Positions 32,867 to 45,757 of a stretch of DNA of 64,000 nucleotides are shown here, in pieces. How positions within the stretch are numbered: the first letter of the stretch is position 1; each line of letters begins with the position of its first letter. The position numbers and the translations under genes are program-made. The notes under the pieces are model-generated. The model ran no database searches. It was not told the origin of the DNA and was given only the letters and a program-made list of their open reading frames with translations. The stretch lies in the sequence record NZ_CP143948.1. One strand, given 5' to 3'. The DNA comes from a plasmid.

Positions 32867-33138
32867 ATTGTTACCTCTTATATCTGCAGCAGCTCTTCCG
32901 GCTTATCAATACATTTTAACTATACTACAATGCCGTTGTTTTTTACAACAATACGCATAGTTCCCAGAAAAATAACTTATGATTATTATACTTTATCCAT
33001 CTTGATTTCACAATCTTTTGTTCACGACAAAAAAGTAGTCGTTTCACTTCCACATTTTTTGACGTTATAACCCATTATAACCCATTGATGTTTCACTCAA
33101 AATGGGTTATAATAGATTGTAAGAAACGGGGTGATATT

Positions 33139-34938
33139 ATGGATATCTACAAACGAATTTATGAATTAGAAAACGAGATAGCAGCCTTACCACAAGGTTC
33201 TATCAACATGAAGAAAATTTACGGCAAAGAGCAGCCTTATCTGCAATGGACAGAGAATGGAAAAAGCAAAAGCAAGTACATTAAAAAGAACGAACGCGAA
33301 GAAATTTTTGCAGGTGTTGAAAGGCGCAAACAGCTTCAAGAAGAATTGAAAGAACTGAAACAACACAGTTCTATTGATCCATCTAAATCTACAGATTTTG
33401 AAACTTCTGTCATTATCGGAGAACGTCTTCTGGCACTGACAAAAGGTGTAAAAAACTGGGGAAAACGTGATTGTTTCAGACAGTTACAGGCATATTTAAA
33501 CAGTGAGGAAACAGATCGTGTATGCTTGGTATTTGGTCTGCGACGAACAGGAAAGACAACAATGCTGCGTCAGGCTGTTTTAGGAATGACTCCATCACAG
33601 TCCGCAAAATCAGCATACATCAAAGCAAAAGGGAGCGATACCATGGCAGCGATGAATCGTGATTTGGGCAAACTCCTTGATCTGGGATATGAATATGTTT
33701 TTATTGACGAAGTAACCCTAATGCCCGACTTTATTGATTCAGCAGCACTATTCTCTGATATCTACGCTGCACAAGGTATGAAAATTGTTTTATCCGGAAC
33801 AGATTCTCTTGGCTTTTGGTTTGCGCTTCATCAGGAACTTTATGATCGAGCTGTTACGATTCACACTACCTTTATTCCATTCCGTGAACATAGTCGTTTA
33901 CTCGGTATCGACAGTATTGACGAGTATATTCGCTATGGCGGCACACTTCGTGCAGGAGAACTGGATTTTGATGATAAAGACGTTATTTCAGAGGATGCTT
34001 CGTTCCGTGATGACGAATCCACACGGCGTTATATCGATACCGCAATCTGTAAAAATATCCAGCACTCCCTGAGTTGTTGTCAAGACGGAGGATATTTCCG
34101 TCATCTCCAATCACTCTATGAGGCAGGTGAACTAACAGGTGCTATCAATCGAATCATTGAGGATATGAATCATCGTTTCCTTATTCGTATTCTGACCGAC
34201 AAATTCAAATCTCATGATTTGGGTTCAGCTGCTGATGTTTTGCGAAGAGATCGTAATCCCAAACAGCGTACAGATATTTTGGATAAAATCGATACAGAAG
34301 CAGTAACCAAACGATTAATGGATATGTTGGAGATTCACAATAAAGAAGAACAATCTATTGGTATTACAAATGCTCACATAGAGGAAATCAAAGAATATTT
34401 GAAAGCACTTGACCTGATTGTTGACGTTCCACGAGAAACGGTAATTCCAAGTGCCGAACCACTAGAGAATATTTTATTCACGCAACCAGGCATGCGTTAT
34501 TGCCAGGCACAGGCATTGGTTCATTCTTTGACAAAAGATGAATTATTCTCTACATTGAGCGAGCACGAAAAAATGTTAGTTTCTGAACGTATTTTGGAAG
34601 AAGTGCGTGGTCGTATGATGGAAGACATCGTACTTTTAGAAACATTCAAATCGGCTAAAAGGCATCAACGTGTTTTCAAATTGCAATTTGCTGTCGGCGA
34701 ATACGATATGGTAATTTACGATGCTAAACTCAATACATGTGAATGCTACGAAATAAAACACAGCTCGAAAATTGTTCCAATGCAAGCCCGCTTCTTAGTT
34801 GACGAAGAGAAACTGAATCAAACAAGTCAGAGATTTGGCCAGATTACCAAGCGATGTGTGCTCTATCGTGGTGAAGATTCCGTCATGGAAAATGGCGTTG
34901 AGTATCAGAATGTAGAAAATTATTTGAAACATTTATAA
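33139..34938 (+). CDS. Large AAA+ ATPase (AAA_14-like core) with a ~110-aa N-terminal extension and a ~350-aa C-terminal region. Function unknown.
   Basis: Walker A is GLRRTGKTT and Walker B is YVFIDEV. The N-terminal segment has a conserved-looking motif (IYGKEQPYLQWTENGKSKSKYIKK). The start is taken at MDIYK (33139) from a GGGGTGA RBS. Confidence 0.6.
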   Translation: MDIYKRIYELENEIAALPQGSINMKKIYGKEQPYLQWTENGKSKSKYIKKNEREEIFAGVERRKQLQEELKELKQHSSIDPSKSTDFETSVIIGERLLALTKGVKNWGKRDCFRQLQAYLNSEETDRVCLVFGLRRTGKTTMLRQAVLGMTPSQSAKSAYIKAKGSDTMAAMNRDLGKLLDLGYEYVFIDEVTLMPDFIDSAALFSDIYAAQGMKIVLSGTDSLGFWFALHQELYDRAVTIHTTFIPFREHSRLLGIDSIDEYIRYGGTLRAGELDFDDKDVISEDASFRDDESTRRYIDTAICKNIQHSLSCCQDGGYFRHLQSLYEAGELTGAINRIIEDMNHRFLIRILTDKFKSHDLGSAADVLRRDRNPKQRTDILDKIDTEAVTKRLMDMLEIHNKEEQSIGITNAHIEEIKEYLKALDLIVDVPRETVIPSAEPLENILFTQPGMRYCQAQALVHSLTKDELFSTLSEHEKMLVSERILEEVRGRMMEDIVLLETFKSAKRHQRVFKLQFAVGEYDMVIYDAKLNTCECYEIKHSSKIVPMQARFLVDEEKLNQTSQRFGQITKRCVLYRGEDSVMENGVEYQNVENYLKHL

Positions 34939-35167: not shown

Positions 35168-35201
35168 CAAAAAAGGAACCGGAAAATCCGGTTCCTTTTT
35201 G
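35168..35201 (-). terminator. Rho-independent terminator after the sucrose phosphorylase gene; functional in both directions.
   Basis: Perfect 12-bp stem: AAAAGGAACCGG pairs with CCGGTTCCTTTT around an AAAAT loop, flanked by an A-run and a T-run. Confidence 0.75.
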
Positions 35202-35258: not shown

Positions 35259-36734
35259 TCAGCTCAGCTCTATCTCATATGCTCCGGCTTCAAAATCCAC
35301 CGTAAGAAGCGCATACGCTTCACCGTTATCATAGCGGATTGAGAGCTTTGGTCCTTCTCCTGCTACTGTGATGACAGCTCCCTTCTCAAACGCCTTATGG
35401 GTGTTTCTCATGCGAAGCAGCTCAAGCTGCTTTGCAACAACATCCTTTTTTAGCGCCTCCTCAATATCGGAAGCACTGAGGTTTGTCCTGTTGATTTCCT
35501 TATGTCCTGATTCTCCTGCTCGTCTTACTGCCTCATGGTCATTTTTGCCTGCAAAGAGATCCAGATACCATACCTGCGGCTTGCCCGGCATGAACATCTG
35601 AATAGCACGGGCCAGAAGCATTTTGCTGTCAGACTCACCAAGCGCACTGTAATATGTGGCATTGACCTGATAATATATATTCTTCTGTCCATGAAGATTT
35701 TTGACCATGCCGCCACGAGATACAATCAAATCTATAAGCGAGCGAATATCGTCCTCCGGAAGCAGACCCTTTAAATCCAGAAGAGGTATGCCGTCATGGC
35801 AGCCAAGCATATTGACAGTGGAGATTTTATCATCCACAACCTCACGCGCCCATTTTGCAAGGTAATCTGCTCTCCTGTTCTCAATCGCGTCAATTACCAG
35901 TCCCGGTAAAAAGAAATCATATGTGGCATAGCCCTTATCTGCAAGGGTTTTGTATATTTTCTCCTCATATGCCGCGTGTATTTCAGGCAGCAGAGTCAGC
36001 CCGAGCGGAGCTGCAAGCTCATGGATCTGCTGTAGAAATTCCCAGGTCTCAGGATCATTCAGGAAATTCTTTTTCCCCGGTGCCTTAGGCGCATAGGCAA
36101 ATGCATCGAGCCGCACAATAGCCGCACCGTAGGATGCTATTTTTTCAAGTGTTTCACGATAAAAATCCCATACCTTTTCGGACTTTATATTTAAATCCAT
36201 CTGCCCCAGATATTCTCTGCCATGCACCTCCTGGTAAAATGTGTTCCAGTATGGCACCCTTCGTCCATCCGGAAACTCAACCATGAGAATCGGAAGCCCC
36301 GGCTTTCTGAAAAACATCTGCTTTAAGCATGACTCATCAGGCTGTATGTAGCCCTCGTCCGTCATGACTCCATGACCTTCCCAGAATTTGTTCCAGTCTA
36401 TGAAAAAATCCCGGTACTCCGACTCATCGCCCTTTTCCACAAGATCCTTGAACTGTGGTGACTGTGCTGAAGCATGATTTAAAATAAAGTCAAGCTTTAA
36501 GTCAATCCCCAGCTCCTTCAATTGCGATAAATCCTCTATTGTCGCAAGCTCCTCATTCAGATTGTAGTCCACGACCGAAAATCCGCGATCCAAATCCGAA
36601 TGATACAGGCTTGGCAGAATATAAAATGATGAAAATGTGTCCTGCATTTCCTTCTTTTTGAGCAGCGCTGCGATATCGGAAAGCTTACCGCCCAGACTGT
36701 CAGGATATGCGTTAAGCATAGGTTTATTGTTCAT
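35259..36734 (-). CDS. gtfA: Sucrose phosphorylase (GH13_18; GtfA-like).
   Basis: The N-terminus MNNKPMLNAYPDSLGG is typical of sucrose phosphorylases and the GH13 catalytic motifs are present. The start is ambiguous between TTG at 36755, ATG at 36746 and ATG at 36734. It is the last gene of the msm-like operon. Confidence 0.8.
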   Translation of the reverse strand: MNNKPMLNAYPDSLGGKLSDIAALLKKKEMQDTFSSFYILPSLYHSDLDRGFSVVDYNLNEELATIEDLSQLKELGIDLKLDFILNHASAQSPQFKDLVEKGDESEYRDFFIDWNKFWEGHGVMTDEGYIQPDESCLKQMFFRKPGLPILMVEFPDGRRVPYWNTFYQEVHGREYLGQMDLNIKSEKVWDFYRETLEKIASYGAAIVRLDAFAYAPKAPGKKNFLNDPETWEFLQQIHELAAPLGLTLLPEIHAAYEEKIYKTLADKGYATYDFFLPGLVIDAIENRRADYLAKWAREVVDDKISTVNMLGCHDGIPLLDLKGLLPEDDIRSLIDLIVSRGGMVKNLHGQKNIYYQVNATYYSALGESDSKMLLARAIQMFMPGKPQVWYLDLFAGKNDHEAVRRAGESGHKEINRTNLSASDIEEALKKDVVAKQLELLRMRNTHKAFEKGAVITVAGEGPKLSIRYDNGEAYALLTVDFEAGAYEIELS

Positions 36735-39564
36735 AGACTTTGCCATCCTTTCCAACTACTATACGCGCATTTTTACTCTGTAAATCAAGCTTTTCCTGCT
36801 CCAACTCTACCACGCGGCATATGAAAGGGCTTGCGGCGTTTTCGTCACGTCCTCTCTTAATGCGGCGCGCCTTAGTCTCCTCAGGCGAACTCTCCAAAAA
36901 TACAGGTATATCAACACCCTTAAGGTATTCGCTTCCTCCGTGGGTCCACTCCAGGATGAGCACCTTAATTCCTGTAAAATCAGTTTCATCATATGAGATA
37001 TCACCGTCCTGGCGGCCCATATGCTTTATCTCAATTATATTTTTTCCTTTCTTAAACTCTGAAAGCTCCTTGTTAATCCTGTCAAAGTCAATCTCCTTAG
37101 GTGTTCCAAGATATCCACGTAAGCCATCCTCACCGGACTCGTTATACACATTAAGGCGTTCTTCGTCGTTTCTCATCGGGATACGGTGTGGATAATTGTC
37201 CCCAGTCAGCACATAGCAGGCTGTATTATCCTTCAAAAAATACTGCTGCAGGGCTGCTGCAATCGTTGTCTTTCCTGAGCCTGAGCCGCCGTAGATGCTT
37301 ATTACAATACGTTTATCAGAAGAACTATCTGCAGTGTCAGCCTCACTTAATTTTAGATTGCCGCACACCTTCTTTATCTCATCATACAGCTTCTTTGCCT
37401 CATCAAGCCTGATAAATGAAAACTGATATGCCTCATACTCCTTTGTTGCAAACGGAAGCGGTATTCCGGCATTCATCAGTGCTGCACCTGTGTACTGCCT
37501 GCCGGTATTTTCCTCAATATATACTGCATCCGACTCCAAGCCCTTAAGCTTCACATAGCAAGCAGCCGCGTTTGCCTCCGCATACAGACGAACCACGCTC
37601 ACAAGCGCCCTGTCCTTTGCCCTTGAGACAGACATCCACGCAGCCACCTCATCCTCAAATGGGCTTGTAAGGCGCCAGTAGGTGCCCTCATTTATAAGCA
37701 TCTCATACTTCTTAAAGGTCTTGATCTGCTCTCTGATTTCTTCCTTTTCCTCATCCGACAGAAGGGCCGGATTCAGCTCATAGCCAAAGGTTCCTGCCAT
37801 GGCTGTGATGCCTCTTGTTTTAAGGCTTGTCACTCTGCCGGTCTGATGATTTGGCACTGCCGATACATGCGCTCCCATGGACGATACCGGATAGAAGAAT
37901 GATGTGCCATACTGTATTCTTGTACGGTTTATGGCATCTGTATTGTCACTGCACCATATCTGTGGACTGTAGTAGAGCATGCCTGCATCAAATCGTCCAC
38001 CGCCACCGCTGCAGCCCTCAAGAAGTATATCCGGATATCTTGTCACCAGACGCTCCATAAAATCATACACTCCAAGCACGTAGTCGTATGCAAGATTTCC
38101 TGCATATACGTCAGCCATGCTTCTGTTCATATCCCACTTCACGTAGTCGATTTTTCCCTGGTCAAACACTGCGCAGATCTGATTGAAAATATTGTCCCTG
38201 ACTTCTTTTCTCGAAAAGTCTAAAAGAAGCTGGTTTCTTGAGCGTACAGGAAGCTTTCCCGGAATCTGGATAGCCCAGTCAGGATGCTCTCTGTACAGAT
38301 TACTGTCCTCATTTACCATCTCAGGCTCAATCCATATTCCAAACTTCACTCCCTGCGCATGCACTCTGTCGATGAGCTCAGAAAGTGTTCCGCCAAGCTT
38401 TTTCTCATTCACAAACCAGTCACCGAGTGATGAATTATCATCATCTCTCTTTCCAAACCAGCCGTCATCCATGACCACCATATCTATGCCCAGTGATGCG
38501 GCCTCCTTTGCAAGGTCTACTATCGTATCACCGGTAAAGTCAAAGTAAGCAGCCTCCCAGCTATTGATGAGCACCGGTCTTACCTCATGTGCAAATCTGC
38601 TCCTGCACACATGCTCACTGATGCAGGTGTGGTACTGATGGGAAAGCTGTGAGAAACCGTCTGCCGAGTATGACATAATCACCTCAGGCACTGTAAAGGT
38701 CTCTCCTGCCGCAAGCGGATATGAAAACAGCTCATCGGAAAGCCCCATTAAAAGGCGTGTCTGGTTAATCTGATCCTTCTCTGCCTCACATGAGAAGTTG
38801 CCACTATATACAAAAAGCATACCATAGCAGTCTCCTGCATTTTCTGTAGTATCGCGCTGTGCGAGAATAACCGCCGGATTGTACTGGTGGCTCGAGGTTC
38901 CTCTGCGGCTTCCGAATGAAAGTGTGCCGTGTCCTAAGTGTGTGCGCTCAAGATTGCGCTCCATGGCATGCTTACCGTAGAATCTGATCACATCATAGTC
39001 TCCGTAAACCATATCCAGGCAGGCAGCATGAGCCTTTTCAATTGTAATATTCCCACTGCCTGTATTTTTAATGAGCACACTTCTTGTGATGACATCACAA
39101 GCCTCAAGCACACCATAAAGCAGATGCACCTCAACGCCTGCGATATCATCGCCAAGAACTATTTCAAGAGTCTGCGCTTCATCATCAGATGCCCACACTG
39201 CCGGAAGTCCCTTTAGAGCGTATTTTCCGTCTCTGATTTCATGACTCTTATAAAGAAGCTCAACACTCTCAGTGCCCTGTTCGTTTTTGATATCAAGCGC
39301 AATATTTCTGAAATCGCCTGTGCCAAGTGTCGGATACTCCTGTGGCAGCGTATCAAGCGAATATGTACGGTTCATGCCTGCTGCGTAAGGATTGCCTGAA
39401 AAGCCTCTGTCAGCATATGTCAGAACATAGTCCATATCACATGTGCTTTTTGCTCCGTAGTACAGATGCAGCAGATAGCCCAGTCTGTCCACCTGCATCT
39501 GATATGTGGTGTGAGCTGTCTGTAAAGTAAAAATTTTCTTGTTTGGATTAAATATAATTGCCAT
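36724..39564 (-). CDS. Alpha-galactosidase (GH36, AgaA/Mel36-like; about 730 aa) fused in-frame to a C-terminal ~200-aa uridine-kinase/PRK-family P-loop kinase domain.
   Basis: The GH36 architecture is complete from MAIIFNPNKKIFTLQ through the GH36 catalytic-region KWDMN motif to the usual C-terminus. It then continues without a stop into a P-loop (IYGGSGSGKTT) and a Udk-like RRIKRGRDE motif. The 946-aa ORF is continuous in the track. Confidence 0.75.
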   Translation of the reverse strand: MAIIFNPNKKIFTLQTAHTTYQMQVDRLGYLLHLYYGAKSTCDMDYVLTYADRGFSGNPYAAGMNRTYSLDTLPQEYPTLGTGDFRNIALDIKNEQGTESVELLYKSHEIRDGKYALKGLPAVWASDDEAQTLEIVLGDDIAGVEVHLLYGVLEACDVITRSVLIKNTGSGNITIEKAHAACLDMVYGDYDVIRFYGKHAMERNLERTHLGHGTLSFGSRRGTSSHQYNPAVILAQRDTTENAGDCYGMLFVYSGNFSCEAEKDQINQTRLLMGLSDELFSYPLAAGETFTVPEVIMSYSADGFSQLSHQYHTCISEHVCRSRFAHEVRPVLINSWEAAYFDFTGDTIVDLAKEAASLGIDMVVMDDGWFGKRDDDNSSLGDWFVNEKKLGGTLSELIDRVHAQGVKFGIWIEPEMVNEDSNLYREHPDWAIQIPGKLPVRSRNQLLLDFSRKEVRDNIFNQICAVFDQGKIDYVKWDMNRSMADVYAGNLAYDYVLGVYDFMERLVTRYPDILLEGCSGGGGRFDAGMLYYSPQIWCSDNTDAINRTRIQYGTSFFYPVSSMGAHVSAVPNHQTGRVTSLKTRGITAMAGTFGYELNPALLSDEEKEEIREQIKTFKKYEMLINEGTYWRLTSPFEDEVAAWMSVSRAKDRALVSVVRLYAEANAAACYVKLKGLESDAVYIEENTGRQYTGAALMNAGIPLPFATKEYEAYQFSFIRLDEAKKLYDEIKKVCGNLKLSEADTADSSSDKRIVISIYGGSGSGKTTIAAALQQYFLKDNTACYVLTGDNYPHRIPMRNDEERLNVYNESGEDGLRGYLGTPKEIDFDRINKELSEFKKGKNIIEIKHMGRQDGDISYDETDFTGIKVLILEWTHGGSEYLKGVDIPVFLESSPEETKARRIKRGRDENAASPFICRVVELEQEKLDLQSKNARIVVGKDGKVYEQ

Positions 39565-39603: not shown

Positions 39604-40440
39604 TTATCCCTTGATTGCACCGTTTGCAACACCGTTTAATATCTGCTTCTGGCAGATTATATAGAATATAAGTATCGGTATCAAAGCCAGAATATATGAT
39701 GCAAATGCCAGATTGTAGTTGGTTCCAAACTGTGTCTGGAAATTCAGCTGTGCCAGCGGCAGTGTATTCTGTCCTGTTCCTGACATGATGACAAGCGGTG
39801 TCATGACATCATTCCAGGTACCGAGTGCTGTCAGGATGGCTACTGTCGCATGCATAGGCTTCATCATAGGAAATACAACTCTCCAGTATGTTGTCCATGT
39901 ACTTGCGCCATCGATGTCTGCAGCCTCCTCAAGTGCCATAGGGATATTTTTCAAGTATCCACTATATAATAATACATTCATTGGCATGTAAAATACAAGA
40001 TATAAAATGATAACTCCTGCCCTGTTTCCAAGTCCCATCTGCGCAGTCTGCTTTACAAGAGGCATCATGAGAATTGAGAATGGCACAAACATACCGCTTA
40101 CAATGTAAAGATATATGAAACGGAAGCTCTTTTTCCTTGCCATGCCTCGTCCGATAACATATCCTGCAATCGAATGGATAAGGATTGCGAGAACAATGGT
40201 CACAATAGTGATAAGTAAGCTGTTTCCGAGAGAATGCCAGAAATCAGTCACCTTCATAGCCTCTGTGAAGTTTGAAAAGCTCCACTTTGAAGGGAATGAA
40301 AGAGCTCCTGCGACATCATTTGTCATCTCACTCGGTTTCTTGAAGGCAATGATAACAGCCATATACAGCGGGAAAAATACTGTTAAGGTTCCCAATATTA
40401 AAACGATGGTAAGTACCCAGTTTGATTTTTGTTTTTTCAT
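39604..40440 (-). CDS. Carbohydrate ABC transporter permease (MsmG/MalG-like).
   Basis: 278 aa, 6 TM. The EAA loop (EEAADIDGASTW) is present. Confidence 0.8.
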   Translation of the reverse strand: MKKQKSNWVLTIVLILGTLTVFFPLYMAVIIAFKKPSEMTNDVAGALSFPSKWSFSNFTEAMKVTDFWHSLGNSLLITIVTIVLAILIHSIAGYVIGRGMARKKSFRFIYLYIVSGMFVPFSILMMPLVKQTAQMGLGNRAGVIILYLVFYMPMNVLLYSGYLKNIPMALEEAADIDGASTWTTYWRVVFPMMKPMHATVAILTALGTWNDVMTPLVIMSGTGQNTLPLAQLNFQTQFGTNYNLAFASYILALIPILIFYIICQKQILNGVANGAIKG

Positions 40441-41315
40441 TATAACTGCTCCTCCTTCTTATTCATAACGCCCATCTGGAATAGTGAAATAGCCACAATT
40501 ACAACAAAGAAAATTACTGCGTTTGCACTCTGGAAGCCAAACTGTCCTCCATCCATACCATTTCTGTAAATCAGGTATGAGATTGACTCAGTGCTCTGCG
40601 CCGGGCCGCCCTTTGTCAATGACATAATCTGGTCAAATACCATGAGGAAGTTCTTTGTGCTGAGCACCAGATTGATTGTAACAAATGGCATAACGAGTGG
40701 AAATGTAACCTTCCAGAACTGCTTCCATTTGCTTGCTCCGTCGAGCATGCTGGCTTCGTAAACATCCTCAGGCACTGTCTGCAGTCCGGATATATAAATG
40801 ATGGTATTCATGGCAACCGCCTGCCATACCCCGACAATCAGCACACCAATCCATGCATATTTTTCACTCGCCAGAATACTGTTTTGTAAGAAACCGATGT
40901 TGAAGGTATTTCCTACTGCCGGCAGAATATATGTAAAAATAAAGCTGAAAATGTAACCAATAACCAGTCCGCCAAGGATATTCGGTACGAAATAAACACC
41001 TCTTAATGCACTCTTGCCGCGGATATTGCTGTTTAACGCAACTGCCATTACAAGGCTTAATACATTTACAAGTACAGTTCCTGCAATCGCATATTTAAAG
41101 GTAAACAGATAGCTCTTTCCGACTCTGGCGTCGGTAAACAGGTCTGTATAGTTTCTAAGTCCGACATAATCATATGAGCCATAGCCCTTGTAGTTTGTAA
41201 AGCTGTAAATCACACCCTTTATCATCGGCAGTGTGTTGAATGCGAAAAATAAAACCACAACAGGTATCACAACTGCCCAGAATGTCTTGTCTCTATTTGA
41301 CATTTTCTTTTTCAT
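40440..41315 (-). CDS. Carbohydrate ABC transporter permease (MsmF/MalF-like).
   Basis: 291 aa, 6 TM. The EAA loop (EASMLDGASKWKQF) is present. Confidence 0.8.
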   Translation of the reverse strand: MKKKMSNRDKTFWAVVIPVVVLFFAFNTLPMIKGVIYSFTNYKGYGSYDYVGLRNYTDLFTDARVGKSYLFTFKYAIAGTVLVNVLSLVMAVALNSNIRGKSALRGVYFVPNILGGLVIGYIFSFIFTYILPAVGNTFNIGFLQNSILASEKYAWIGVLIVGVWQAVAMNTIIYISGLQTVPEDVYEASMLDGASKWKQFWKVTFPLVMPFVTINLVLSTKNFLMVFDQIMSLTKGGPAQSTESISYLIYRNGMDGGQFGFQSANAVIFFVVIVAISLFQMGVMNKKEEQL

Positions 41316-42613
41316 TTTGCATCCTCCTGTTCCTTCTGGTAATCCTGTACTTCACGAATCAGATCTCTGTTGTAACGCTTCCAGTCTGAATCAAATTTCT
41401 TTAAGAACTTCTCCTTTGCATTGTCACCTGTGTCAAGCAGATATGTCTGAATCATGGCATCCACGCTCATCTCACTTGGATAATGATGATCCTGATAATC
41501 TGACATACGGTTGTCCTTTATATACTCCTGCATATCCTCCAGTGTATCAGGTATTGCGAAATCTCCCTCCTTGCAGGCAATTCCGCCCTGGTCATCCAGA
41601 TATGTCTGAATTGTCTCATCGCTGTACAGATATTCAAGCACCTCGTATGCTGCTTCCTTATTTTTGCAGGCCTTCATAACTGAAAACTGTAAATCTATTC
41701 CTGAATTTAACACATTGTCAGCCTCATTATCATTTGCCGGGAAAGTAAATGAACCGATATTCATATCAGGATTAACCGACTTAATCTGAGGAATAGCATA
41801 GCTTCCTATCGTGTACATGGCAGATTCACCTCTGGCAAAGGCTGTACATGCGTCATTGTAGCTGTAAGCATATGGATTGTCCTCTGCATAATCAAGCAAT
41901 GTGCGTATCTTGTCGGCAACCGGAGAATATGCCTCCTCAAATGTCGTATTTCCCATATTTACCTGATTACAGGTGTCTGAATCACAAAGGCCTACTGCAA
42001 GGGCATTCCACGGTGCCAGACAGGTCCATGTATCCTTAAAGCCCAGATACAAAGGAAGTGTTCCGCTTTCCTTTATCTCATTGCACAGTGCTGTAAACTC
42101 ACTCCAGGTTGTAGGCACCTTCCAGCCATTCTCCGCAAACATATCCTTGTTGTAAAGCACTCCTGCTGCATTTGCGGCGTAAGGAAGTGCATAGGTGCCA
42201 TCCTTTGGAATGAACTCAAGCTCCTTGTCCATATCCAGATATGCCTTTTTTACAGTGTCCACTGCATCCAGATCTGAGATATCCTCAAACAAATCTGCAT
42301 CCAGGAAATTTGAATAATTGATATCTCCACCTATTGCAATGATGTCCGGATAATCCTCACGGATGAAGCGTGTCTTTAAAATAGTCATAGCCTCATTCGG
42401 AGATGAGATAGTCAGGTGAATATCATCGTGAGTCTCATTAAATCGCTTTTCAATCTTCTCGAAAGCCTTAACAGCCTCCGGCTTATAAGAAACCACCTCA
42501 ATCTCAGTTTTTCCGTCCGCCCGCTTTTCATTTCCACATCCGGTCAGCCCTGTAGTGCACATTCCGAGTGCCAGCACAACCGCCATAGCCTGACAAATCT
42601 TTCTTTTTGCCAT
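41312..42613 (-). CDS. Sugar ABC transporter substrate-binding lipoprotein (MsmE-like, raffinose/melibiose-type).
   Basis: Signal peptide plus lipobox (LTGCGNEK). 433-aa SBP. Confidence 0.8.
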   Translation of the reverse strand: MAKRKICQAMAVVLALGMCTTGLTGCGNEKRADGKTEIEVVSYKPEAVKAFEKIEKRFNETHDDIHLTISSPNEAMTILKTRFIREDYPDIIAIGGDINYSNFLDADLFEDISDLDAVDTVKKAYLDMDKELEFIPKDGTYALPYAANAAGVLYNKDMFAENGWKVPTTWSEFTALCNEIKESGTLPLYLGFKDTWTCLAPWNALAVGLCDSDTCNQVNMGNTTFEEAYSPVADKIRTLLDYAEDNPYAYSYNDACTAFARGESAMYTIGSYAIPQIKSVNPDMNIGSFTFPANDNEADNVLNSGIDLQFSVMKACKNKEAAYEVLEYLYSDETIQTYLDDQGGIACKEGDFAIPDTLEDMQEYIKDNRMSDYQDHHYPSEMSVDAMIQTYLLDTGDNAKEKFLKKFDSDWKRYNRDLIREVQDYQKEQEDAK

Positions 42614-42792: not shown

Positions 42793-43644
42793 GTGACTCA
42801 CATGGACAAACTTTCCTTCAATATTTTTCCAAATGTAAATTTCATAGATTTGTGTATGTACCAGTTCGGCCACGAGCAGTGCGAACCGGGACACTCATTT
42901 GGTCCTGCCACAAGAAACCACTATCTATTCCACTATGTACTGTCCGGCACCGGCACTCTGATGGCCGATAATGCAAAGGGCATTACACAAACCTACAACA
43001 TAAAAAGCGGGCAGGGCTTTCTGATTTTTCCCGGCCAGATAAATACCTATATCGCAGATGACAAGCTTCCTTGGGAATACATATGGATTGAGTTTGACGG
43101 TCTGCGCGTCAAGGAGGCTCTCACCACAACAGAGCTTACCCAAAATAATCCTGTATATCACACACACTCAAAGGATATCCGCGAAAAGCTTGTTGAGGAA
43201 ATGCTCTACATCACAAGGCACCCCTCAGAATCACCGTATCACCTGATTGGGCATATGTACCTTTTTCTGGATTATCTGATGCAGTCAGCCAAATCATCAA
43301 AACTCGTTCCGGGTGGGAAAATGAGTGATTTTTATATAAAAGAAGCGATGAATTATATCGAGCAGAATTTTCAGAATGATATCTCAATCGAAGATATTGC
43401 CGGAGTCTGCGGCATAAACCGAAGCTATCTGGGCAAAATTTTCAAAAATTCCGTTGGACATTCACCTCAGGAATTTCTCATGAATTATCGTATGATAAAG
43501 GCCACAGAGCTTTTAAAGCTGACCTCCTTATCCATCGCAGATGTTGGTTCTGCCGTTGGATACGAAAATCAGCTTCATTTCTCACGCGCCTTTAAAAATA
43601 TCTACGGAGTGGCTCCGAGGGAGTGGAGGAACGAGCATAAATAA
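42793..43644 (+). CDS. AraC-family transcriptional regulator (MsmR-like), divergent from the msm-like operon.
   Basis: N-terminal cupin/AraC sugar-binding-like domain plus a C-terminal twin HTH (IEDIAGVCGINRSYLGKIFK ... LHFSRAFKNIYGVAPREWR). Confidence 0.8.
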   Translation: MTHMDKLSFNIFPNVNFIDLCMYQFGHEQCEPGHSFGPATRNHYLFHYVLSGTGTLMADNAKGITQTYNIKSGQGFLIFPGQINTYIADDKLPWEYIWIEFDGLRVKEALTTTELTQNNPVYHTHSKDIREKLVEEMLYITRHPSESPYHLIGHMYLFLDYLMQSAKSSKLVPGGKMSDFYIKEAMNYIEQNFQNDISIEDIAGVCGINRSYLGKIFKNSVGHSPQEFLMNYRMIKATELLKLTSLSIADVGSAVGYENQLHFSRAFKNIYGVAPREWRNEHK

Positions 43645-43646
43645 GC

Positions 43647-44687
43647 TCACTGTTCATCCTTCACAAATTCATTTACATTGTCATGGGTCACCTTCTCATA
43701 CGGCAGATAAACATACTTTTTATCCTCAAACTTTATGTTTTTCATGCTGCCCCCGGTGGCTGCCAGATAGGCAAGCTGAGCCATAGCCCTTGCCTGTCCC
43801 TCCTTGTCATTGTAGACTGTTGCCGCAAGCTTCGACTGCTGCACTGCTTCAAGCCCATCGTCTGTGCCGTCCACTCCAAAAAATGCAGGTACATTCGACT
43901 CCGTCACACCAAGCTTTTCGTATGCGTCTATCGCTCCGAGTGCCATTGCATCGTTGTTTGCAATAACCAGCTCTATGCTGTTTTTATACTGACCTATAAG
44001 CTGTGTCATACGGTTCTGCGCCTGAGCACGATTCCAGTTTGCTATCTGACAGCTAAGCTTTTCTATCTGAAGACCGTTATTCTTCATGCTCTCTGTCACA
44101 CTCTCTGTCCTGACAATGGCATCCTGATGTCCCATCTCTCCCTCCAGGATGACGTACTGTATCCTGCCATCACCGTTTTTATCCACACCCGGATTATTCT
44201 TTATATAATCGGCAATGAGTTCCCCCTGCATCTGACCTGACTGCTTTGCCTTGGCCCCGACATAGTACAGCTTATCCCAGCGATTTAAATCCTCATCAAC
44301 CGGCTCCCTGTTAAAGAAAATAATCGGGATGTCCTTCTCCATTGCAGCATTTATAATATGCGACAAATCTGTTCTGTCTGCCAGATTAATACACAGCACA
44401 TTGCAGCCGTCCTCTATCATCTCCTGCACCTGGTCATCCTGTGCACGCTGTGAGCCTGCAGCATCCATGATTGTCATGCTGATATCATATTTGTCTGTAT
44501 CAAGACTTGCGCACTCCTTTTTGAAAGTTTCTATCAGCTCCCCGATAAATGTATCCTTCTGGTCATAGCAGGTCACGCCTATATATATCTGTTTTTTCTC
44601 GTCAACTCTTGTGTTGCTGCACGAGACAAATGACAATATCAGTGCAAAACACAGTATCATCATGGTATTTCTTATTCTGCTTCTCAT
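43647..44687 (-). CDS. Periplasmic-binding-protein-like sugar-binding lipoprotein (CUT2/ribose-galactose-binding-like). Likely a sensor-associated SBP of the downstream three-component system.
   Basis: Lipobox (FVSCSN). PBP type I fold motifs are present. It is the last gene of the HK/RR operon. Confidence 0.65.
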   Translation of the reverse strand: MRSRIRNTMMILCFALILSFVSCSNTRVDEKKQIYIGVTCYDQKDTFIGELIETFKKECASLDTDKYDISMTIMDAAGSQRAQDDQVQEMIEDGCNVLCINLADRTDLSHIINAAMEKDIPIIFFNREPVDEDLNRWDKLYYVGAKAKQSGQMQGELIADYIKNNPGVDKNGDGRIQYVILEGEMGHQDAIVRTESVTESMKNNGLQIEKLSCQIANWNRAQAQNRMTQLIGQYKNSIELVIANNDAMALGAIDAYEKLGVTESNVPAFFGVDGTDDGLEAVQQSKLAATVYNDKEGQARAMAQLAYLAATGGSMKNIKFEDKKYVYLPYEKVTHDNVNEFVKDEQ

Positions 44688-44701
44688 TTATTGTTCCCCC
44701 A

Positions 44702-45757
44702 CTACTGGCTGATTGCATACAAAAGCTTCTTGTTTTCTTCATCAAACAGATTTTTTCTGGTAAGAAGCTGGTAAGATACCGGCTTTTCCTCTACTGAATA
44801 TTTTCTACTGCCACGCAGCATATCGACCAGTCCTACAACACTTTTGTATCCGGCAGCAAATTCATCAGGTGTGATAAGAGCCTCTGTCCAGCCCGAATCG
44901 AGATAATATATGGCTTCTGTTGAGTTTCCTATCCCATATACCAGTGCACCCTGCAGATTATTATCAGAGGCTTCCTTTGCCGCCTCAACCACACTTGCAT
45001 CATCTATTGCAAGAACTATGTCAACCTTTCTCTGTGACTGCAGATTTATTTTCTCCCCGGTATCCGAAACACCTGATACAATCCACATCACAACACAGCC
45101 GCTCTCCGCGAGAGTATCCTTTATGCCATCAATGCGTTTTTTACAGGCATCGGATTCAGTGTTTTCACAATAGATTCCTATTTTTTTACCTGAAAGTGTT
45201 CCGTTGTTGTCAGCAAGAAGCTTTTGTGCCAGTTCCACACCCATGCTGTACTGGTCAAACTCCACTGTATTTAACGACTTAAAGCTCTCGCTTCCCGCCT
45301 GGTCTCCGACTACCATTATCGGTGTCTTTTTATTTATCCGGATAAGTGTATTAAGGCTTTTTTCTTCTGTCATTTTTTCTGCTGTCGGCTTGAAAACGAC
45401 CGCATCAGCTTTTTTGTTTATCTCCTGCTTTATGACATCAATTTCATCTGACATATTGTTCAGATTTTCCTTACTTATCATAACTACATCCACACCATAC
45501 TCAGAAGCCGCCATTTTCATGCCATATTTAAACGCAGCACTGTGGCTTTCATCCACATCAGCCATCACAACTGCAATACGCTCCGGTTTCTCATTGAGCT
45601 TATTGTATGCGATAAAACCTATTCCTATCACAAGTAGTACTCCCAGCAGCAGCTCTGTTATGATGAAGTTTCTCTTATTCTTGCTCATATTTGTCCATTT
45701 ATTTTTCACTGTCACACTCACACCTCCCATACAGCAAGGGAATTGTACTTGCTTCAT
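44702..45757 (-). CDS. Membrane-anchored periplasmic-binding-protein-like sugar-binding protein (second SBP-like sensor component).
   Basis: N-terminal TM anchor (FIITELLLGVLLVIGIGFIAY) followed by a PBP type I domain. The start is uncertain: ATG at 45688 or GTG at about 45712 with a GGGAGG RBS. Confidence 0.6.
   Translation of the reverse strand: MKQVQFPCCMGGVSVTVKNKWTNMSKNKRNFIITELLLGVLLVIGIGFIAYNKLNEKPERIAVVMADVDESHSAAFKYGMKMAASEYGVDVVMISKENLNNMSDEIDVIKQEINKKADAVVFKPTAEKMTEEKSLNTLIRINKKTPIMVVGDQAGSESFKSLNTVEFDQYSMGVELAQKLLADNNGTLSGKKIGIYCENTESDACKKRIDGIKDTLAESGCVVMWIVSGVSDTGEKINLQSQRKVDIVLAIDDASVVEAAKEASDNNLQGALVYGIGNSTEAIYYLDSGWTEALITPDEFAAGYKSVVGLVDMLRGSRKYSVEEKPVSYQLLTRKNLFDEENKKLLYAISQ

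Follow-up and report, generated by a model that had tools for sequence, protein, structure and literature searches.

A GH36–Kinase Fusion in a Raffinose-Type Operon

The 64,000-nucleotide stretch of the plasmid record NZ_CP143948.1 that was analyzed here (henceforth, the window) contains a carbohydrate-utilization locus featuring an open reading frame (ORF) that joins an α-galactosidase of the GH36 family to a P-loop kinase (Table 1). By sequence comparison, this gene is very probably the Agathobacter (Eubacterium) rectalis orthologue of AgaSK, the bifunctional α-galactosidase–sucrose kinase (SK) of Ruminococcus gnavus, and it would lie in a raffinose-utilization operon of the Rgaga1 type. The original prediction, made from the nucleotide sequence alone, had described this ORF as a complete GH36 enzyme continuing in-frame into a C-terminal P-loop kinase, and the domain searches bear this architecture out. 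The Pfam domains Glyco_hydro_36N (aa 29–285, E = 2.9e-85), Melibiase (aa 289–626, E = 2.3e-148) and Glyco_hydro_36C (aa 641–716, E = 2e-19) are all essentially full-length, and the N-terminal, (β/α)8 catalytic and C-terminal β domains form a complete GH36 module. The Pfam PRK domain (PF00485) follows at aa 754–906 with 31.6 bits, above its gathering cutoff of 22 bits. Both kinase motifs pointed out in that prediction are present, with VISIYGGSGSGKTTIA at aa 753–768 and FLESSPEETKARRIKRGRDE at aa 889–908. Conservation in the alignment is lowest in the linker between the modules; in place of this linker, stand-alone relatives of the kinase have an N-terminal extension containing the motif GDMPGD.

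Table 1. Features of the agaSK locus in the window and of kinase–phosphorylase fusions in other genomes. Positions without a prefix are those of the window; SPP, sucrose 6F-phosphate phosphorylase; MAG, metagenome-assembled genome.
Feature	Position	Strand	Basis
agaSK, bifunctional ORF, 946 codons	36724..39564 incl. stop	-	ATG start, TAA stop
GH36 α-galactosidase module, aa 1–719	37408..39564	-	2yfn match, conserved residues
GH36 nucleophile D478	38131-38133	-	alignment to RgAgaSK
GH36 acid/base D540	37945-37947	-	alignment to RgAgaSK
Inter-domain linker, aa 720–752 (33 aa)	37309..37407	-	helix EAKKLYDEIKK, then low-complexity Ser/Asp stretch
SK module, aa 753–946	36727..37308	-	Pfam PRK, 69% identity to P0006
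Walker A GGSGSGKT	37267-37290	-	motif
GDNYPHRIP motif	37177-37203	-	motif
EWTHG motif	36937-36951	-	motif
Lid RRIKRGRD	36844-36867	-	motif
GH13_18 SPP homologue, 491 aa	35259..36734	-	6s9u match, YYQ motif; same call in five assemblies
ABC permease 2	39604..40440	-	Pfam BPD_transp_1
ABC permease 1	40440..41315	-	Pfam BPD_transp_1
ABC solute-binding protein (agaE equivalent)	41312..42613	-	Pfam SBP_bac_1, SBP_bac_8
AraC-family regulator (agaR equivalent)	42793..43644	+	Pfam AraC_binding, HTH_AraC, HTH_18; 280 aa in five independent assemblies
Intrinsic terminator of the operon, GGAACCGG-ATTTT-CCGGTTCC then TTTTTT	35169..35200	-	read by eye
SK–SPP fusion, actinobacterial MAG	L031:7809-10310		MAG contig
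SK–SPP fusion, Arachnia sp.	L051:5287-7986		MAG contig
SK–SPP fusion, Ca. Epulonipiscium	L057:2245-4869		MAG contig

The best match of the window protein among solved structures is PDB 2yfn/2yfo, entitled “alpha-galactosidase-sucrose kinase AgaSK”, which aligns with it over aa 1–719 without gaps at 1401 bits and 82.8% identity. Taking the list of RgAga residues in PMC7688924 as the reference, we found all 12 of the 12 published catalytic and binding residues to be identical to those of the R. gnavus enzyme (RgAgaSK), namely D478, D540, W336, D366, W411, R443, K476, W537, D52, F55, R66 and H199. These include the residues contributed by the adjacent subunit (D52, F55 and R66) of the GH36 tetramer, an assembly on which substrate binding depends, as well as H199, which that list marks as variable among the substrate-binding residues. 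The kinase half, with GGSGSGKT at aa 759–766, is 69% identical over 225 aa to P0006, an R. gnavus-type fragment that served as the SK reference and whose GH36 tail is identical to 2yfn at 156 of 157 positions; overall, the identity to RgAgaSK is ~80%. Further, the gene order AraC/solute-binding protein/permease/permease/AgaSK/GH13_18 is that of the published Rgaga1 locus (PMC7688924, PMC6521584) and recurs in 24 further species, with the solute-binding protein retained at 70–98% identity in all loci of the AgaSK type. The two proteins are thus alike in having three GH36 domains and a C-terminal Walker-A kinase on one polypeptide, in their active-site residues, and in their six-gene locus with an SPP gene downstream. 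They differ in the species of origin and in the linker, which is diverged and ~10 residues longer in A. rectalis.

The AgaSK of R. gnavus E1 has been established as a bifunctional enzyme, with structures in PDB 2YFN/2YFO (Bruel 2011; Tauzin 2019; Lafond 2020, PMC7688924); claims of Bruel 2011 are given here as the later papers quote them. With melibiose, raffinose, stachyose and verbascose as substrates, its GH36 module carries hydrolysis as far as sucrose (PMC7688924; review PMC10112845), and the C-terminal Walker-A module transfers phosphate from ATP to sucrose; expressed apart, the two act nearly independently (PMC7688924). The isolated SK domain acts on sucrose with a Km of 1.0 mM and a kcat of 2.4 s-1, and the full-length enzyme with a Km of 3.1 mM and a kcat of 3.3 s-1 (PMC7688924). 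By orthology, these data favor the guess in the original prediction that the kinase phosphorylates a released sugar. On the other hand, its statement that the fusion had not been characterized does not hold: AgaSK was first described in 2011, and both Tauzin 2019 and Lafond 2020 cite E. rectale ATCC 33656 for a syntenic locus with the bifunctional gene (PMC7688924, PMC6521584).

Some points weigh against the assignment. The measured identities of the GH36 module, the SK module and the whole protein all lie below the >90% that Lafond 2020 (PMC7688924) gives for RgAgaSK against the E. rectale enzyme, and the kinase half is only ~69% identical to the characterized one. Moreover, the function of the A. 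rectalis enzyme would be one transferred by orthology from the assayed R. gnavus enzyme.

Assignment of the GH13_18 Gene to the Strict SPPs

The GH13_18 gene downstream of agaSK matches the strict SPP structure 6s9u from Ilumatobacter coccineus with 604–607 bits, as against 262 bits for 6s9v and 198 bits for the classic Bifidobacterium sucrose phosphorylase 1r7a. It also displays the clade-specific YYQ loop-A motif of the strict SPPs, as given in PMC6720575, with its YYQVNAT aligning with 6s9u; the clade-specific lysine was not located in it. Going by these features, the gene is assigned to the strict sucrose 6F-phosphate phosphorylase clade and not to the classic sucrose phosphorylases. The most likely start of this gene is the ATG at 36734, giving 491 aa, and this start overlaps the agaSK stop by 11 nt. 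Thus, the operon context proposed in the original prediction stands with regard to the AraC regulator, the solute-binding protein, the two permeases and GH36, but its “sucrose phosphorylase” is to be replaced by an enzyme of the strict SPP clade.

Characterized members of this clade depend on the phosphorylated disaccharide. The R. gnavus enzyme (RgSPP) cleaves sucrose 6F-phosphate but not sucrose, and in the reverse reaction takes only fructose-6-phosphate and not fructose; phosphorolysis of sucrose 6F-phosphate was likewise shown for the I. coccineus enzyme (IcSPP), with none on sucrose. The classic msm/raffinose operons of Lactobacillales and Streptococcus resemble the window operon in clustering an AraC-type regulator, an ABC importer, a GH36 and a GH13_18 phosphorylase. 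However, they lack the kinase and have a true sucrose phosphorylase, whereas the window operon combines a kinase with a GH13_18 of the strict SPP clade.

Linkage of the Kinase to SPP across Genomes

Relatives of the SK module were found in at least 590 species-level genomes from several phyla, namely Bacillota, Actinomycetota, Spirochaetota and Chloroflexota—a range far exceeding the “four loci” of the 2019–2020 papers. The counts that follow concern the best 80 of these genomes, from a scan with one genome per species, and the linkage was counted from the SK loci outward, i.e., as the probability of SPP given SK. Twenty-six of the 80 loci are of the AgaSK type (24 intact and 2 disrupted), and the remaining 54 carry a stand-alone kinase of 250–370 aa, with GH36 within 8 kb in just four of them; in all, GH36 is present in about 30 of the 80 SK loci. 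In contrast, an SPP homologue lies directly 3′ of the kinase on the same strand in 77 of the 80, at an estimated median distance of 5 nt, and the 11-nt overlap of the window recurs in 24 loci. SPP is a much closer and more widespread genomic partner of the kinase than GH36 is.

In three lineages, the two genes are united into single stop-free ORFs of 833–899 aa with the kinase followed by a complete SPP (Table 1). These fusions were confirmed by BLASTP against the SK and SPP proteins of the window; Pfam finds little or nothing on either the fusions or the stand-alone kinases, the former being without a PRK match and the latter scoring at or below the PRK cutoff (20.9 bits for the kinase of locus L025). 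Further, the divergence of SK from the window protein tracks that of SPP, with a Spearman correlation of 0.84 overall (n = 71) and of 0.94 within the GH36-fused set.

The loci can be compared with that of the window according to the arrangement of the kinase. Those with split GH36 and SK genes (Clostridium sp. L2-50 in the literature, L071 and L076) keep the order regulator, solute-binding protein, permeases, GH36, SK, SPP. However, their GH36 and SK are separate ORFs, and their SK belongs to the stand-alone type, showing the GDMPGD N-terminal extension, an insertion of ~45 aa and ~40% identity. The stand-alone SK–SPP pairs (L025–L080), the three SK–SPP fusions and the I. coccineus locus share with the window a homologous kinase with the same invariant motifs and an SPP immediately 3′ of it. 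They differ in that about 50 of the 54 stand-alone loci are without GH36 within 8 kb, in that GH32 precedes the I. coccineus kinase, and in that the fusions join the kinase to SPP instead of to a glycosidase.

Two of these loci are informative in their gene content. In I. coccineus YM16-304 (L086:4323-7572, AP012057.1), a 217-aa SK-like kinase precedes the characterized strict SPP (6s9u) with a 4-nt overlap. This kinase is 29% identical to the SK of the window (E = 5e-17) and presents its motifs in the same order. A GH32 gene lies before it, and the locus also includes an ABC sugar importer in divergent orientation and a LacI regulator; the searched parts of the IcSPP structure paper (PMC6720575) do not mention this SK-like neighbor. 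In Shuttleworthella satelles DSM 14600 (L077:6207-16082), phosphoglucose isomerase immediately precedes the SK–SPP pair, and phosphoglucomutase follows a few genes further on. These neighbors, which handle fructose-6-phosphate and glucose-1-phosphate, accord with these two compounds being the products of the pair.

The three loci without SPP 3′ of the kinase are from an Anaerolineae MAG (L038:5682-8774) and from Solobacterium MAGs (L046 and L053). The first of these kinases follows a 700-aa protein without a Pfam match and a MalK-type ATPase. In L053, the genes on either side of the SK-type kinase run in the opposite direction and encode an FGGY-family carbohydrate kinase and an M24 peptidase.

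As a separate observation, the stand-alone SK–SPP pair of Butyrivibrio sp. X503 (L069:6954-11259) is placed between “putative esterase” (PF00756) genes, with an ABC sugar importer and an AraC regulator adjoining; these flanks may hint at an acylated sucrose substrate.

A Predicted Pathway and the Site of Sucrose Phosphorylation

By analogy to R. gnavus, the ABC importer of the operon would take up raffinose-family oligosaccharides, the GH36 module with D478 and D540 would strip off their α-1,6-galactose units singly to leave sucrose, and the C-terminal P-loop module would phosphorylate this sucrose with ATP. The gene linkage suggests that the translationally coupled SPP would then split the sucrose phosphate into glucose-1-phosphate and fructose-6-phosphate, such that the operon on its own would suffice to convert raffinose into glycolytic intermediates for one ATP per sucrose.

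On sequence grounds, we propose that the kinase may be a physiological sucrose 6F-kinase feeding the adjacent SPP, a proposal for which we see the case as evenly poised. Sucrose and ATP would yield sucrose 6F-phosphate, which with inorganic phosphate would give glucose-1-phosphate and fructose-6-phosphate. SK and SPP would then form an ancient and widespread two-gene (at times one-gene) sucrose catabolic module to which sucrose-releasing glycosidases have been attached, with GH36 fused in the Lachnospiraceae and GH32 adjacent in Ilumatobacter. The two enzymes are read as catalyzing consecutive steps because of their adjacency, the overlaps and fusions of their genes, their correlated divergence, and the Ilumatobacter and Shuttleworthella loci. 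A chemical argument from the fold points in the same direction: kinases of this fold phosphorylate the 5′-CH2OH of a β-furanoside, which would be the topological equivalent of the fructofuranosyl 6-OH of sucrose.

The published biochemistry stands against such a step from SK to SPP. Bruel 2011, as quoted in PMC7688924, assigned the phosphate to the glucose residue, at C6, and RgSPP requires a fructose-borne phosphate, neither accepting fructose nor cleaving sucrose. Because of this mismatch, the authors send the kinase product, sucrose-6(glucose)-phosphate, to a GH32 sucrose-6-phosphate hydrolase encoded elsewhere; SPP would obtain sucrose 6F-phosphate by other means, such as uptake, and SK and SPP would be neighbors without being consecutive steps. 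We regard this scheme as possible, if somewhat doubtful. The regiochemistry of Bruel 2011, again as quoted, is repeated by Lafond 2020 and Tauzin 2019, and the scheme has been retained in later reviews and papers. However, the literature concedes that the source of the sucrose 6F-phosphate is unknown, and to invoke ABC import for a sugar phosphate of which plants contain just traces is an ad hoc solution. The SK–SPP adjacency in 77 of the 80 loci, the overlapping or near-abutting genes and the three fusions are hard to explain if the two are not consecutive, and SK also adjoins the second characterized strict SPP, that of Ilumatobacter. Moreover, the 2020 study (PMC7688924) identified the SK product by mass spectrometry only, a method that cannot separate the two isomers. 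From the pathway we further reason that the published scheme would cost two ATP per sucrose as against one.

An action of SPP on the glucose-6-phosphorylated isomer was also considered and rejected, since RgSPP refuses unphosphorylated fructose as an acceptor.

Family and Fold of the Kinase Module

The residues invariant across the SK family, in full-length numbering, are G759, S761, G762, G764 and K765 of the Walker A motif, D789, Y791, P792, R794, P796, N799, D800, E872, W873, H875 and D885 beyond it, and R901 and R904 of the lid. An AlphaFold model of the module built with 73 homologues has a predicted local distance difference test (pLDDT) score of 89.5 and a predicted template modeling (pTM) score of 0.86. 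Its top Foldseek matches (3w8r, 1ufq and 5b3f) have template modeling (TM) scores of 0.65–0.69 and a probability of 1.00 at 15–23% identity, and the nearest solved folds are those of uridine-cytidine kinases, phosphoribulokinases and pantothenate kinases. Hence, the uridine-kinase/PRK call of the original prediction was right at the level of the fold, in agreement with the Pfam PRK match. The SK module shares with these kinases a Walker A, an Asp after strand 2 and an Arg-rich lid in the same order, but differs in its low identity to them, in scoring below the uridine-kinase equivalog cutoffs, and in having a disaccharide as its substrate. When searched against the PDB sequences, the SK-family profile matched APS kinases, SRP54 and proteins like them over just the P-loop and GDN region and gave no residue-level alignment to uridine kinase; accordingly, it is by motif position that D789 is the likely catalytic base.

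The same data bear on whether the C-terminal domain might be a uridine/cytidine kinase or a regulatory nucleoside triphosphatase (NTPase) instead of a sugar kinase, alternatives that the original prediction had kept in play. The uridine-cytidine kinases are indeed its nearest structural neighbors, there are weak matches to the udk models, and a basal ATP hydrolysis has been published for the R. gnavus enzyme (PMC7688924). However, the scores against NCBIfam TIGR00235/NF004018 are 32.3 bits versus an equivalog cutoff of 220.3 (or 220) and 31.8 bits versus one of 180, the identity to any solved kinase is no more than that noted above, and the SK family has an invariant motif set of its own. Together with the measured phosphorylation of sucrose by the isolated R. 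gnavus domain and a gene context that is invariably one of sugar metabolism, this makes either alternative highly improbable.

Integrity and Natural Variants of the Fusion

The fused ORF is real, far beyond chance, and not a product of assembly. A GAGGTGA ribosome-binding site lies 5 nt 5′ of its ATG. At the junction between GH36 and the kinase the remaining two frames are full of stop codons, and an inspection of this junction for homopolymer runs and ambiguous bases found none. The exact 946-aa protein has been recorded from 660 contigs, and 1,169 index blocks from independent assemblies contain it. Its database entries are “MULTISPECIES: alpha-galactosidase [Agathobacter]” and a protein from an Agathobacter rectalis MAG; its cluster at 90% identity has 20,432 members. 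The gene order is identical across five independent assemblies. When the fusion was sought in related genomes, an uninterrupted GH36–SK frame of 918–959 codons emerged in 24 species-level genomes (Roseburia faecis, R. porci, Falcatimonas, Lachnobacterium, Agathobacter and others). Given the identical protein on so many contigs and blocks, the five assemblies and the 24 intact frames, and with the R. gnavus protein purified and assayed as a single polypeptide, we treat as negligible the further suggestion of the original prediction that a sequencing, assembly or frameshift artefact had united two genes.

What speaks for separate genes are the split GH36 and SK of L071, L076 and Clostridium sp. 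L2-50 and an in-frame stop codon in the linker of one Blautia intestinalis genome. In the latter, B. intestinalis 27-44 (L012:4991-8625), the reading frame also shifts at the C-terminus of SK and SPP is cut short; with its SK/SPP junction frameshifted in this way, this copy is a decaying locus. Kinase remnants of 207 aa matching the Blautia locus (P0018, P0021 and P0022) are common in gut metagenomes, with hundreds of member sequences. The split and decaying versions are natural variants of the agaSK locus and do not count against the fusion.

Flanking Features of the Operon

The AraC-family gene is divergent from the rest of the operon, which is closed by the terminator in Table 1, with its hairpin core at 35175–35195. 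A scan with consensus promoters and terminators performed at chance level (17 versus 16.9 expected, and 5 versus 5.7) and missed this terminator 3′ of the SPP gene. Directly past the AraC regulator, at 43647–45757 on the minus strand, are two tandem Peripla_BP_4 sugar-binding-protein genes (346 and 351 aa), which are kept in five of five independent assemblies and are probably part of a neighboring sugar transport or sensing system. On the other side, between the SPP terminator and a UDG-family gene, the plus strand at 33085–34938 codes for a strain-variable AAA_14/DUF6788-type ATPase of 617 aa. In one assembly (L081), this gene is replaced by an AAA-ATPase_like/PDDEXK_9 gene, marking a small variable island adjoining the operon.

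Implications for Sucrose Catabolism

As a discovery, the fusion itself carries little weight, the R. gnavus enzyme having already been crystallized and kinetically dissected. Yet public records name this very abundant gut protein just “alpha-galactosidase”, and its kinase function is therefore invisible to annotation-based metabolic models of a major butyrate producer; the neighboring gene is, in turn, easily mis-called a sucrose phosphorylase. The linkage of SK to SPP is a side result that goes beyond the literature. If the kinase is indeed a sucrose 6F-kinase, this would answer the stated question of where the SPPs get their sucrose 6F-phosphate, and the published glucose-C6 regiochemistry of AgaSK would be mistaken or not physiological.

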